This document shows, in pieces, positions 18,001 through 23,125 of a stretch of 23,125 nt of DNA (the stretch's first letter is position 1; the number at the start of each line of letters is the position of its first letter). A program made the position numbers. The stretch is from a virus (Duplodnaviria > Heunggongvirae > Uroviricota > Caudoviricetes): the IMG/VR virus record IMGVR_UViG_2778261064_000008. One strand, 5' to 3'.

Positions 18001-21000
18001 TACCGCCAGGCACTTTCACGCCGCGAATTACGCGAATGTCATCGAATTGCTCGTCGTCTTCCGCAAATCCGGCGTGAATAAGGGAGTCAAGTAAACCTTT
18101 CAGGATGTTGTCCAGGTCACGGCGGCGGGAATCTGGTGGTTCAGCAATAATTTTGATGCGGAGTCGTGATTTAGTGAAAATGTCTAACCTGAGCTGTCGG
18201 ATGATTTGCTGTACGTCTTTTCGGTATTTCTGGCCTTTGTCGCTGATGTAATACTGGCTTCCCCGTCTTCGCCAGTAGGTATTCACCGATGGCGGCCAGG
18301 GAAGAACAAACTGATATTCGTTCATGACTTAATTTTCCCCTCCTTCAGCAGTATCGCCTGCGTCCTGATCACGCCTTCGAGGTGGTAAAGTCTGGCGTCT
18401 TTGTTGTCGAGAATCCGGGTGCGTCGGTCGATCTCCGCATGGCAGTCACTACAAGCCCATGCGCCGATCAGGTCGTCAGGCTTCATTCCCGTTCCGCAAA
18501 TTCCAGCCATCCGGTAATGTGCCAGAACTGTAGTTTCAGGATTGCCATTGCATACGCCGTAAATACGTACCTGGCATTCTCTGCCGCGAGCTTCTTTGCG
18601 TAGGTTAGCCATTAAGCAGCCTCCCCTGTTACTTTCAGCATTCCGTTATCGAGCAGCTTTCTGGTCAGCCACTGTTGACCACGCCCGGTGATTTTTGTGG
18701 TGAACGATATCTGTATTCCGTGATTTGTATTGACCGCTGTTTCTTTCACTGTGAAATAGCCGCGATCCATATATTCCTGCATTGGCACATTGCGCTGGGC
18801 ACCTGAAGCAATAAGGATTTTGTGATCGCGCATCCACGCAAACAGTTTGTTTGGACCAATACCAACAACCTTTGCAAAGTTTCCAATCAAAATTCCGCTG
18901 GCCTCGCCAACTCGATCGGCAAACTCAACTTTAGGTGCTGCGAGAGCAAGCTGTTTCTCCAGTTCAGCCTTCTGGTCTTCAAGGTCGGCCGCAAGGCGCA
19001 ATGCCTCAGAAAAGGTTTGTGGTATTTTCGCGGTTGCCCCTTCAAGCTCTCGCCAACGGTCAACAAGACGAGCGGTGAATTCCGGCGACAACTGAGCGAC
19101 GACAATAATGCTGTCTCGCTTACCTTGTTCGCCTTCGAATATATACACGCTTGTGAATTTGTTAGGGCTAATTGTTTGTTTATTTTCAACTTTTTGCATT
19201 GAAGGAAGTTGAATCACCCCACGCTTTGCCAGACGTTCTATTGATATTCTGACATTAACGTGTTGGCTTCCCACCAACTCAGCGATTTCAATGCTTGTCA
19301 TTTTGATGGCATTGCTATTTATCAGCTCATTCATTGTCATGTCCTCTCACATTGAAAATTCAGCAATAAAAAACCCAGCCGAAGCTGGGTTTGTTAAGTT
19401 GTCAATTGTCAGTAGCGATGCAGTGAAGGCGGCAACTCTTTGTTCTTAAGCCTTTCCCATGCCAGAAGGTTCGTCGGCCCGTCAGGCTCATAAATATCTA
19501 TATCCCGCGTGTGATTAATTAAAACGCCCCTCGCCCTCCCGATGATATACGAGAACTCATAGCCGTAGTCGTGGCATATGCCGGAATAGCCAGACTGAAT
19601 CAGTTTTAATGCGGGATACAACTCACGGAACAATGCCTGTGAGCGGTTGGCATAATCCCACAGCCATACAAGGCTGTCTGTTTCTTTTGCGGAAAGCCCG
19701 TTGAGCTTCTTCTCTTGTTTGCCAGTATTTTTCTCGCCCTGGCTGAAATAGCAGTCTTCCAGTTTTTCGAATACCTCCCACGCCCGATCGGTTTCGAGCA
19801 TTTTTGCGTGACGGGCTGCGCCGCGTTCTGTCCAGAGGATGAGGGAGCGAACGTTACGGGCAATTTTCACAGAGTAGTTAAAAGCTACTCTGTGCTTGAA
19901 CTCACGTAAAGTTTCACCTTCAAGTTTGAAGAAGTGTTTTTCCTCAATGAAACGACCTTTGTTTTCGTGGTGATTCTGGCGAATACGAATAGCTTCTGTG
20001 CCGTAAAGGTGCGCCAAAAGTTCGGTAGTGATAACGGGGATCTGCTTGTAAGTAATCGTGGAGAGTGTTTCAACAGAAACTTGAGTTGTCATAATGACGC
20101 CCTCGAGTGGTTTCTAAACTATCACCACCGTCAGGTTCCTAATCATCGGGTGGCGAGACGTACAGGGTTAGGAACTACCGGGAAACCAACCGGCGAGCTT
20201 TTCAGCTCCCCTATACGCCCCACCATAATTCAGATGTGCGTGTGCATACGACAATAAAAAACACGCTCGCGGCGTGTCTCTGTCGCGGTTTCTATCCGGG
20301 GTTCCTAATCCCGACGCCAGATTTTGCTGGCGTGCGATGAATATAGCCCCGAATAAATCATCGCGTCAATCACCTTGTTTTCCTCGCACGATGTCTTAGC
20401 CACCGGACATCCCACAGGTGAGCCGTGTAATTGAAGGTTTTTACGTCAGATTCTTTTGGGATTGGCTTGCGTTTATTTCTGGAGCGTTTCGTTGGAAGGT
20501 ATTTGCAGTTTTCGCAGATGATGTCGGTGATGCTTCGTCGCTGTCGTCTCATTCGTACCTCCTGTCGGTAAATCTGACCCCCTGACCAATAGCCCATGCT
20601 GTCGTGTACTCAATCAGGCTTGCCATACGCTTCACGCTCATCTGCGCACTGCTTTCGCGGATATTGACGTATTCGCCTTCAAGACCAGGTAAAACATCGG
20701 CTTCCTGTTTTGTCGCCACGGCATGACCGCTGATTAACAAAACTTTCCACTGTTCTGGTTTTAGCCACCTGCCACACCACTGAACCTGTCGGGAGATATC
20801 AGCGACCATCGCGTGAAATTTTGCATTTTGAGCGAGATTACGCTTGTAATCGGTGATGCGGATCGTAACGGGTTTGTCTTTATCGAGAGTTGTTGCAAGG
20901 ATGGCGTTAATGGCGAATTGTTGCTGCTGCTTACTTCGGAGGAAGATAGTCTGGTTCATTATTCCCTCTCACTGGATTTTCCCAACAAAAAAGGAGCCGA

Positions 21001-23125
21001 AGCTCCTTTAGTTTCAGAATTCAAATTGTCTTGCCCGCAGGCTTTTCAGCATTGGCATGGCCCGCTGGATAACGGAACTTGACATGTCTAGACGTGTTAC
21101 CTCCCTCAGTAGCGCGTCTCTGTTCTTCGTCACCATGTAGATGGTCTCAAACGCAATGTCATACAGCTTGTTCGTGTATGAGGAGTTCAGCTCTTTCATA
21201 ATGGGATACAGGTGTTTGCTGATGTCCTGGGCTTTTTCCATCCAGAGCTGCATGTAGCAAAGGAGGATGATTTCCTCGGCTGTGAATTGTGGCTGAATCT
21301 GCGGCTGCTGTTCGGTTGGTGCTGTTTTTCCCTGGCTGAAATAGCAGTCTTCCAGTTTTTCGAATACTTCCCACGCCTGATCGGTTTCGAGCATTTTTGC
21401 GTGACGGGCTGCGCCGCGTTCTGTCCAGAGTATGAGCGAGCGGGCTTTCGGGGAAATTTGTAACCCTCTTAAAGATGGTTGCAAATTTTGTGAGTTACTT
21501 AAAGTAACCCGCAAATTTTTCAACTCATCACCAACAACCTTGAAAAAGTGTTTACCCTCAACAAAACGCTCGGAATTACGGGTGTAATTTACTTTGATGT
21601 TGTTGATCTCGGTACAGTAAAGCTGTGCCAGTAACTCGGTAGTGATAACGGGAATTTGGTTGTGTGTAATTGGGGAAAGAGTTTCGACAGAAATCTGAGT
21701 GGCCATAACGATAACTCCGTACATTTGGACATTATCGCCACCGTCAGGTGCTAATCATCGTGGTGGCGAACTGTGCGGGGTTAGCACTACCGGGTACGGA
21801 AACCGGCGAGCCTTTCGGCTCCCCCACACAGCCCGCCATAAATCGCGAATGTGACTGTGCAAACGATATGAAAAAAGACGCGGGCGCGTCTCATATCGCT
21901 CCGTAAACATCCGGGGTGCTAATCCCGACGCCAGATTTTGCTGGCGTGCGAAGAATATAATCCCGGATACGTGACGTTGTCAAACTGATGGCATTGCAGA
22001 TCCCTACACAATGTAATACTATGTGTTATACATTAATAACGGAACAAAAAATGCGCATTTTTAAAAACGCCTGGTTTGAGCGATTTGCACGCAAAAACAA
22101 AATATCCGACCAGTCACTGCGCGAAATTGTTAAACAGGCTGATAACGGGCTTATCTCAGCAAACCTGGGTAACGGCGTTATCAAGCAACGTCTGCCACGA
22201 GTCGGTGGCGGCAAATCTGGCGGTTATCGCACAATCATTTTCTATCGCGTCGGCACAAGGGCCTTTTTCGTATATGCATACGCAAAAAATGAACGTGAAA
22301 ATATAACCGCTACTGAGGAAAGTGCATTTCGGAAGGCGGCTCCTCACGTACTCAATCTAACAGATGAACAACTGGCACAACTGATTCTACAGGGTCAGTT
22401 TACGGAGGTACCCAATGAGTAAAAATTACCGCAGTGATGCGCTTGCATCCGTACATGAAATGATGGAATCGCTTCATGATATCGGCGCAGTAACGAAACA
22501 GACTATGCGAGAATTCGATGAAACTTGTCTCCAGCCAGCGCCGGTAATGTCTCCGGAAAGGATCCGTGCACTGCGCGAACGAGAGCATCTGTCTCAACCT
22601 GTTTTTGCCAGATACCTCAACGTCAGTAAAAACCTGATATCAGACTGGGAACGTGGTGTAAAACGGCCGGGAGGTGCCGCTCTTCGCCTTCTTTCAGTCG
22701 TAGAGAAAAACGGGATACAGGTAATATCATGATACTCCAATACAACAAAACCCGCCGAAGCGGGTTAAGTGCGGGTGCGTTGAGGATGCCTGACACATCA
22801 GAGGTGGCGAGGGATTTCTCCCTCGCCTGGTCTCTTACTCCTCAGGTTCGTAAGCTGTGAAGACAGTGACCTCCGTCTGGCCGGTTCGGATTCGTACCTC
22901 GCAGAGGTCTTTCCTCGTTACCAGTGCCGTCACAATGACGGTAATACAGATGACGATCAGGGCGACTAACATCGCCTTTTGCTGCTTCATAGCCTGCTTC
23001 TCCTTGCCTTTCGGCGCGTAAGAGGCTAACCTACATGTGTCTAGCATAAAATTGGCCTCAGATTAATGTTAGGCGTCTTGCAGGACGCGTAATGTTAACT
23101 GGGGCTTTTCTCTGTCTGCCTTACG

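Follow-up and report, generated by a model that had tools for sequence, protein, structure and literature searches.

The stretch of DNA analysed here (the window) comprises 23,125 nucleotides (nt) of a virus of the Caudoviricetes (IMG/VR record IMGVR_UViG_2778261064_000008). Between positions 19371 and 21983 its minus strand carries two cassettes of identical build, in each of which a promoter is followed by a leader of about 244 nt, a gene encoding a protein with ORF6N and P22_AR_C domains and a terminator with a UUCG loop. From these domains, both of which score above the Pfam cut-offs, the products of the two genes (ant1 and ant2) are classed as antirepressor-type proteins; some evidence of antirepressor activity is reported for the relatives AnrP of Gifsy-1 (in the published Gifsy-1 account, PMC4825925) and Ant of Phi24B. 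The two proteins are 46% identical and differ mainly in their C-terminal domain. Each leader contains a match to the isrK RNA family, a match to the C4 antisense RNA family and two trios of complementary sites (a1, a', a2 and b1, b', b2), and we asked how these elements might control the antirepressor genes. The parts of the two cassettes, including all the genes, promoters and terminators that a first-pass annotation of this DNA had placed on the minus strand, are as follows.

Cassette 1
20340..20369, minus strand: promoter, -35 TTGACG (20369-20364), 18-nt spacer, -10 TATATT (20345-20340), 10/12 consensus
20256..20333, minus strand: IsrK-1 short RNA, with hairpin 1, hairpin 2, linker and intrinsic terminator (20277-20256); Rfam isrK, 69.2 bits
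Within 20310-20300, minus strand: a1 site, UUAGGAAC, in the loop of IsrK-1 hairpin 2
20293-20287, minus strand: b1 site, AGAAACC, in the IsrK-1 linker, GAAACC being the matching part
20146..20230, minus strand: C4-1 antisense RNA; Rfam C4, 66 bits; predicted fold of -43.8 kcal/mol with the family structure
20189-20182, minus strand: b' site of C4-1, UUGGUUUC, in the hairpin-2 loop, UGGUUUC being the pairing part
20175-20166, minus strand: a' site of C4-1, GUUCCUAA(CC), in an internal single strand
20144-20134, minus strand: a2 site, GAUUAGGAACC, just after C4-1
20115-20108, minus strand: b2 site, AGAAACCA, containing GAAACCA
20104-20100, minus strand: Shine-Dalgarno sequence GAGGG, 7 nt ahead of the AUG at 20092
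19409..20092, minus strand: ant1, 227 amino acids; ORF6N 1.2e-19, 70.8 bits; P22_AR_C 1.3e-23, 83.3 bits
19371..19392, minus strand: terminator, UUCG loop then U run

Cassette 2
21954..21983, minus strand: promoter, TTGACA, 18-nt spacer, TATATT, 11/12 consensus
21871..21947, minus strand: IsrK-2 short RNA; Rfam isrK, 73.5 bits; terminator at 21892-21871
Within 21924-21915, minus strand: a1 site, UUAGCAC, in the loop of IsrK-2 hairpin 2
21906-21899, minus strand: b1 site, UUACGGAG, containing UACGGAG
21759..21843, minus strand: C4-2 antisense RNA; Rfam C4, 78 bits; predicted fold of -49.0 kcal/mol with the family structure
21802-21794, minus strand: b' site of C4-2, UUUCCGUAC, in the hairpin-2 loop, UCCGUAC being the pairing part
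21787-21779, minus strand: a' site of C4-2, GUGCUAA(CC), in an unpaired stretch of C4
21756-21747, minus strand: a2 site, GAUUAGCACC, just after C4-2
21722-21715, minus strand: b2 site, GUACGGAG, containing the Shine-Dalgarno sequence GGAG, 8 nt ahead of the AUG at 21706
21014..21706, minus strand: ant2, 230 amino acids; ORF6N 70.9 bits and a diverged P22_AR_C 30.2 bits
20990..21009, minus strand: terminator, UUCG loop then U run

Promoters were located with a consensus scan in which matches to the -35 and -10 elements were counted out of 12. In cassette 1 the -35 element lies directly after the ninE stop codon, and the promoter occupies the same position as PisrK of Gifsy-1, where the numbering of the published mutants is consistent with transcription that begins at the A corresponding to position 20333. 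A longer open reading frame (ORF) call for ant2, 21014-21724, was judged less likely than the start at 21706, which agrees with copy 1 in the alignment and is preceded by GGAG at a distance of 8 nt.

The leaders were compared with the Rfam covariance models at their curated gathering cut-offs, which are 50 bits for isrK (RF01394), 45 bits for C4 (RF01695) and 46.7 bits for c4-a1b1 (RF03163, 'a1, b1 targets of C4'). Both leaders exceed the cut-offs for isrK and C4, the C4 matches being full-length. The c4-a1b1 model gives 46.1 bits in each leader (20293-20346 and 21908-21960, the 5' part of isrK), which is 0.6 bits under its cut-off in both, with E = 7.7e-10. The minimum-energy folds of both C4 copies have the family shape, with a long outer stem, a tetraloop hairpin, a second hairpin and an unpaired 3' stretch, and in both folds b' sits in a loop and a' is unpaired. 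The IsrK-1 hairpins are present in the predicted minimum-energy fold; the IsrK-1 terminator was absent from the list of a minus-strand terminator scan and is covered by the isrK model match. Regarding the surroundings, each isrK match has its own promoter-like site, an intrinsic terminator and an antirepressor gene downstream in a lambdoid nin region, and the a' and b' sites of each C4 match are complementary to a2 and b2, which follow C4 on its own strand ahead of the antirepressor gene, b2 being located at the ribosome-binding site. By sequence, the window copies are ordinary members of the isrK and C4 families. Hfq binding is given in the isrK family description (Rfam RF01394). From the ends of P1 c4, the mature RNAs are predicted at approximately 20224-20149 (C4-1) and 21837-21762 (C4-2).

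The first-pass annotation had pointed to a short motif that occurs twice in each leader and once as its complement. The copy 1 motif GATTAGGAACC has exactly two occurrences in the window (20310-20300 and 20144-20134, against 0.02 expected by chance), and its complement GTTCCTAACC has one, at 20175-20166; the copy 2 motif GATTAGCACC is likewise found twice, at 21924-21915 and 21756-21747, and its complement GTGCTAACC once, at 21787-21779, the chance expectations being 0.02-0.10 per pattern. The doubled motif corresponds to the sites a1 and a2, and its complement to a'. A second trio of complementary sites, which had been missed, also differs between the copies: b', in the C4 hairpin-2 loop, is complementary to b2 near the ant ribosome-binding site and to the b1 copy in the IsrK linker. 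The a sites read UUAGGAAC/GUUCCUAA in cassette 1 and UUAGCAC/GUGCUAA in cassette 2, and the b sites GAAACCA/UGGUUUC and GUACGGA/UCCGUAC, respectively; all six partners differ between the cassettes, and at both a and b three partners have changed together. The order of the sites is antiparallel, as pairing needs, with a then b on the targets and b' then a' on C4. Of the other two hairpins described earlier, the covarying one (GAGCT/AGCTC versus GAGCC/GGCTC) is hairpin P2 of C4 and the third is the IsrK terminator (20277-20256 and 21892-21871).

The covariation expected from this layout was examined in a wider set of leaders. Searches of viral contigs with the Ant protein and with the conserved 5' hairpin of IsrK gave 200 loci, from which 198 leaders were obtained. 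Of these leaders 93 were distinct and parseable, and 25 representative leaders were aligned, with slid registers and shuffles as controls. In this alignment a1 and a' are paired in 100% of the cells and a' and a2 in 96.6%, where the misses are aligner register errors, and in each case 5 of the 7 pairs are compensatory. Slid controls gave 23-43% pairing, and 0 shuffles reached the observed pairing or covariation score. Within C4, the outer stem is 99.5% paired with 5/17 compensatory pairs, and all five pairs of hairpin P2 have changed on both sides (5/5). The helix of the IsrK terminator (65% paired) is not scorable on the 25-leader alignment, in which terminators of different sequence families are misaligned.

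The b' loop is 8-13 nt long and offers no unbiased column register, and the longest perfect matches within and between classes were used instead. The 93 leaders contain 11 a' strings and 19 b' loops, freely mixed in 30 combinations, and one leader was taken for each combination (n=30). Cognate matches of at least 7 nt were obtained for 97% at a1, 93% at a2 and 83% at b2, compared with 6%, 6% and 10%, respectively, for non-cognate partners; at b1, 87% of the cognate matches reached at least 6 nt, and 2% of the non-cognate ones at least 7 nt. In all classes the position of b2 is confined to about -25 to +12 relative to the start codon, and the site often includes the Shine-Dalgarno sequence or the AUG.

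A short motif that is repeated near a promoter and a gene start might also be read as DNA operators to which a protein repressor binds, like those of Mnt and Arc in the P22 immI region. This reading is extremely unlikely: the third copy is a reverse complement inside a conserved RNA fold, the changes across the 11 a' and 19 b' variants are base-pair-compensatory, the RNA covariance models score above their thresholds, and the homologous pairs have been mutationally tested as RNA pairs (PMC4825925, for Gifsy-1). The same matches, compensatory changes and mutational tests bear out the preference for a functional RNA structure over an operator that had been expressed from the two copies alone. 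The P22 region does share with the window the P22 antirepressor C-terminal domain and repression of ant translation at the RNA level; its sar RNA, however, is encoded on the strand opposite its target and has neither the C4 fold nor duplicated target sites, and the Mnt and Arc protein repressors dominate there.

Natural swaps of these sites are clear in close relatives of the window copies. Copy 2 and leader L053 differ at 20 of 248 positions, of which 17 lie inside the three a patches, and between copy 1 and L182 a single base is deleted in each of the three a sites and b is swapped as well. Mismatched cassettes were also observed in phage contigs (L088, L101, L104, L110 and L163), together with truncated ones (L109, L150 and L176). 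In L088, C4 and IsrK belong to one class and a2, b2 and ant to another; L101 is without a matching a1 and L104 without a matching a2, and in L150 IsrK is fused directly to the middle of ant. From their sequences, the mismatched cassettes would be predicted to escape C4 control.

The immI region of P1/P7 (Citron and Schuster 1990; NC_005856) has the order of the window leaders, promoter, a1, b1, C4, a2, b2 and gene, at near-equal spacing. The P1 record lists promoters P51a and P51b, a1, b1, a c4 of 77 nt, a2 and b2, icd and ant, and annotates a2 and b2 as target sites for the repression of icd ant translation. P1 C4 has the same fold and scores 68.8 bits, against 66 and 78 bits in the window, the P1 a1b1 region scores 51 bits on the c4-a1b1 model, and recognition through two sites with b2 at the ribosome site is common to P1 and the window. 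The c4/IsrK-type layout that the first-pass annotation had proposed equals that of annotated P1 immI, and the Gifsy-1 leader was aligned together with those of the window. There are differences as well. P1 has icd between b2 and ant, whereas the window has no icd and the ant AUG directly follows b2 in both cassettes. P1 has a second, repressor-controlled promoter (P51a with Op51), whereas the consensus scan found one promoter-like site in each window leader, and no C1-type operator or second promoter was seen there. The window antirepressors are ORF6N/P22_AR_C proteins encoded in a lambdoid nin region, the P1 antirepressor is Ant1/2, and the cassette is present twice in the window and once in P1. 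The P1 recognition sites, a = UUGACAG and b = GUUAGUGA, differ from those of the window; in P1/P7 heteroimmunity, specificity is set by few bases (2025 review).

It should be noted that the P1 a1b1 segment (L201 18231-18312; NC_005856 48230-48311) matches the isrK model with 35 bits, below 50, and that a hairpin with a U run behind it belongs to the matched part. A short IsrK-like RNA may thus be made by P1 too, and this match with its terminator-like hairpin indicates, at the level of sequence, that IsrK is the lambdoid counterpart of the a1b1 leader segment of P1.

The second system of reference is the IsrK leader of Gifsy-1. Leader L085 of our set (NC_010392.1 33992-34332) is 99.1% identical to Gifsy-1, and the nucleotide numbers of Hershko-Shalev et al. 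2016 all map onto it (G28, G31, C18, AUG 107, C159, C162, G173 and C175). The window leaders are about 84% identical to the Gifsy-1 leader and have in common with it the promoter, the IsrK hairpins and terminator, C4, a distance of about 241-244 nt from the start to the AUG, and the lambdoid setting. Its recognition class, a = UUGGCGU and b = UCACCG, is unlike those of the window. The published compensatory mutants G28A/C162U and G31A/C159U (PMC4825925) fall exactly on a1·a' pairs, in the same alignment columns. It is observed in addition that the Gifsy-1 leader carries an a2 (UUGGCGU) and a b2 (AUCACCG, beside GGAGGG) before anrP, complementary to its own C4. A term search of Hershko-Shalev et al. 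2016 (PMC4825925) found no phage P1, and the searched text does not discuss a2/b2.

Several results of the Gifsy-1 study bear on function (all as given in PMC4825925, in the passages that concern isrK). The promoter drives transcription into the antirepressor gene, not its translation. IsrK supplied in trans raises translation 139-fold and the activity of a transcriptional fusion 8-fold, northern blots show STnc1160, a processed RNA of about 80 nt that spans the C4 region, the output changes on mutation of G28/G31 and C159/C162, and the isrK locus is required for spontaneous phage production in stationary phase.

Gifsy-1 further has orf45, an ORF of 45 codons whose end overlaps the start of anrP (AUGA), with translational coupling. 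The same AUG opens frames of 27 codons (copy 1) and 31 codons (copy 2) in the window, which end well upstream of ant. Across the leaders this ORF has 8-45 codons, and the Gifsy-1 row alone has 45 codons with the AUGA overlap; as a conserved coding feature, the upstream ORF that opens at the C4 AUG was rejected, its length being too variable. The AUG itself is conserved at the 5' edge of C4 (20224-20226 and 21837-21839, minus strand), is the Gifsy-1 orf45 start and spans the position of the P1 c4 5' end, which lies between AU and GG, so that processing would destroy that start codon.

Taken together, we consider it likely that each cassette is an RNA switch of the P1 immI and IsrK type on an antirepressor gene, in which C4 would block ant translation and the short IsrK RNA would titrate C4. 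Transcription would start from the sigma-70 promoter at about 20333 in cassette 1 and about 21947 in cassette 2, and most transcripts would end at the first terminator, giving an IsrK RNA of about 77 nt with a1 in a hairpin loop and b1 just after. Read-through transcripts would contain the C4 element, the second copy of the sites (a2, b2) and ant, and C4 would be excised from them and persist as a stable species of about 76 nt. RNase P is the enzyme that cuts the 5' end of c4 in P1. The b' loop and the adjacent a' single strand of C4 would then pair with b2 and a2, and Ant would be left untranslated because a2 and b2 lie on or beside the ant ribosome-binding site. IsrK carries both sites and would compete for C4; in excess, it would allow ant to be translated, the phage repressor to be inactivated and the prophage to be induced. 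We infer the processing, the repression, the anti-repression by titration, the independence of the cassettes and the effect on the phage repressor, whereas the membership in the RNA families, the sites and their three-way covariation are observed. That a1b1 competes with a2b2 for C4 is an idea of 1990, quoted by Weinberg et al. 2010.

A number of points weigh against such a switch. Its processing, repression and titration steps are transferred by analogy from what is known of P1 and Gifsy-1. According to the Gifsy-1 account (PMC4825925), basal translation goes up, not down, when a1 is mutated in cis, which a pure decoy model does not predict, and its authors invoke alternative cis structures and report that extra STnc1160 failed to relieve IsrK toxicity. 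In both window leaders the minimum-energy fold of the first 180 nt is a cis helix between a1b1 and b'a'. The window lacks both the upstream-ORF coupling of Gifsy-1 and the icd of P1, each of which is linked to control elsewhere. Finally, b2 of cassette 1 stops 3 nt short of the Shine-Dalgarno sequence and does not cover GAGGG. Given the cis data on Gifsy-1 a1, the unresponsive toxicity and the cis helix of the window leaders, a three-way competition that acts partly in cis is likely.

The cis helix and the mutational and native-gel data on Gifsy-1 (PMC4825925) also support a purely conformational switch, the model drawn from Gifsy-1, in which the IsrK part pairs with its own C4 region, IsrK in trans displaces it and opens the RNA, C4 is no repressor in trans and a2/b2 are idle. 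We consider this unlikely as the whole explanation. It leaves unexplained that a2/b2 track a'/b' as faithfully as a1/b1 do, and that b2 keeps a constant position at the ribosome site; it needs an orf45 that overlaps the ant start, which the window frames and the variable frames of the other leaders do not provide; and the full 259-nt window leaders fold into separate IsrK and C4 modules. In addition, Gifsy-1 double mutants in which a1·a' pairing was restored gave 224 and 327 units, against 4 for the wild type (PMC4825925, values as tabulated there), which fits a requirement for a'·a2; that they fall short of wild-type silence would be expected if a'·a2 pairing also matters.

Alternatively, C4 might act mainly on transcription, by premature termination or through Rho-dependent polarity, instead of blocking the ribosome site. 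Biere, Citron and Schuster are said to have found in 1992 that translational repression in P1 leads to loss of downstream transcription. The 8-fold rise of the Gifsy-1 transcriptional fusion points the same way, as does the parallel with the CI RNA of P4 and its sites seqA and seqC that the Gifsy-1 authors draw (PMC4825925, in the part on isrK). In the immunity system of P4 (seqA, seqB and seqC), a small RNA processed from a leader pairs with repeated complementary sites upstream and downstream in the same transcript, as is proposed for the window; unlike the window, P4 uses it for premature termination of the transcription of replication genes and has no antirepressor, and we liken the two by mechanism without claiming kinship. 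A mainly transcriptional action is nevertheless decidedly unlikely, given that b2 overlaps or abuts the Shine-Dalgarno sequence or the start codon in nearly all classes and that the translational effect exceeds the transcriptional one in Gifsy-1 (139-fold versus 8-fold). It is also compatible with repression at the ribosome site, of which it may be a downstream consequence.

The antirepressor switches proposed for the window would differ in their recognition bases. Between the cassettes, the a sites have only UUAG in common and the b sites nothing, and the a'-a2 site duplexes have energies of -10.1 and -9.0 kcal/mol for cognate pairs and -1.7 and -2.0 kcal/mol across cassettes. This argument rests on site-level duplexes: the energies of full-length C4 with full targets were uninformative, with co-fold gains of -0.2 to -6.1 kcal/mol and no cognate preference, and were left unused. 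Because the a and b sites differ and cross-cassette duplexes reach about -2 against -9 to -10 kcal/mol, cross-talk is unlikely, and each C4 and IsrK probably acts on its own cassette only. Of the earlier proposal of two switches with different specificity bases, the difference in bases thus stands for both a and b sites, and the functional independence is what these values would predict.

Double cassettes recur elsewhere, in L003, L004, E. coli FORC_069 and NCCP15648, OkiPb01678, L194, L153/L154 and L104/L105; in L194 and L153/L154 the two cassettes have the same a and a different b. Among 5426 complete E. coli genomes, a 2.7-kb query spanning the two cassettes was covered to at least 80% in 21, and at least one cassette-like match was present in 2481, some genomes having up to 11. 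The nearest double-cassette relatives among them show 93% identity over 94% of the query. In E. coli OkiPb01678 (L203, NZ_AP042495.1 3147368-3152625) the order is ninB, methyltransferase, ninE, ant, ninB, ninE, ant, and both promoters abut a ninE stop, whereas in the window cassette 2 follows a toxin-antitoxin module. From this order, the L203 double cassette is apparently the product of duplication or recombination of the whole ninB-ninE-ant module.

All combinations are distinct in 13 of 15 multi-cassette genomes, and each of the five kinds of prophage with a double cassette has unlike codes. For cassettes drawn at random, the chance that two have the same combination is only 8-12%, and unlike codes in double cassettes are therefore not evidence of selection; selection for orthogonal codes within a genome was considered and found to be without evidence, unlike codes being no commoner than the class frequencies predict. 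That unlike codes per genome or prophage are no commoner than chance, and that broken cassettes exist (L088, L101 and L104, in which a1 or a2/b2 mismatch C4, and the truncated L109, L150 and L176), could also mean that one or both window cassettes are inert leftovers of recombination in a mosaic nin region, whose differing bases have no regulatory meaning. This is very unlikely for the window, where the cassettes are complete, with near-consensus promoters, intact two-domain ORFs, terminators and all six sites matched within each.

A broader reading, which we put forward tentatively and hold at somewhat less than even chances, is that a and b form a combinatorial, two-site RNA address code among lambdoid prophages, one that appears to change by concerted swaps of three partners on an otherwise constant scaffold. 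It would define CI-independent immunity groups at the RNA level, and the window prophage would possess two insulated channels, each with a trigger RNA and an antirepressor. If so, one prophage could answer two signals, or attack two repressors in a polylysogenic cell, and the published Gifsy-1 model would be incomplete, as it omits the conserved, covarying a2/b2.

As a system, the cassettes belong with P1 c4, Gifsy-1 IsrK and the Rfam families, all of a known kind; their double arrangement is uncommon. Hundreds of c4 copies occur in Proteobacteria and phages (Weinberg et al. 2010), and that work and the Rfam entries isrK, C4 and c4-a1b1 describe the folds, not recognition classes or tandem cassettes. 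A 2025 review gives IsrK and c4 as separate systems. Neither recognition classes nor tandem cassettes in lambdoid phages were described in the literature covered by our searches, which were limited in reach, and the same searches gave no explicit equation of IsrK with P1 a1b1 and no report of the presence or covariation of a2/b2 in IsrK-type leaders; at the homologous E. coli loci, RefSeq annotates protein genes only. The comparison made here joins two separate bodies of work, on P1 c4 and on Salmonella IsrK, and points to a2/b2 as candidate sites in Gifsy-1, outside the published model. Antirepressors of the kind encoded by ORF6N/P22_AR_C cassettes are reported in 126 of 279 Shiga-toxin phages, and one of them speeds late-gene expression after induction. 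If the cassettes are separately addressed, the recognition class would tell in advance which prophages of one cell can silence or trigger one another, which would bear on toxin-phage induction in strains with several prophages.

Regarding the genomic setting, two genes lie between the cassettes and outside the switch.

20549-20959, minus strand: ninB, Pfam NinB 2.6e-53
20370-20597, minus strand: ninE, Pfam NinE 3.7e-43

Downstream of the cassettes are a gene with Rha and KilAC domains, ybcO, rusA and Q, then a gene for a NanS-p-like esterase, lysis genes and P22-like head genes. This gene content, with the nin region, identifies the element as a lambdoid prophage similar to a Shiga-toxin phage, although the interval from Q to the esterase gene showed no Shiga-toxin genes. 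The Rha and KilAC gene (18612-19340, minus strand) is a third antirepressor-type gene, which begins 30 nt past the cassette-1 terminator and has no IsrK/C4 leader of its own. Directly downstream of the Q gene (17342-17875) there is a full-length match to the STnc100 small RNA family (143.5 bits, 16805-17003, minus strand), which looks like a short terminated RNA of the late promoter; the NanS-p-like esterase gene (14666-16630) follows it.

On the other side, a RelE-family toxin and a helix-turn-helix antitoxin (21988-22732, plus strand) are encoded divergently from cassette 2. The probable promoter of this pair and an inverted repeat are at most a few tens of bases away from that of cassette 2, so that the two promoters stand back to back. 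The mechanically called 144-amino-acid ORF of this operon probably starts later, near 22062-22084, as judged from the shorter RefSeq homologue in L202. At the end of the window, which cuts it, a match to the sok antitoxin RNA (71 bits, 22985-23125, minus strand) indicates a hok/sok-type module upstream of the nin region.

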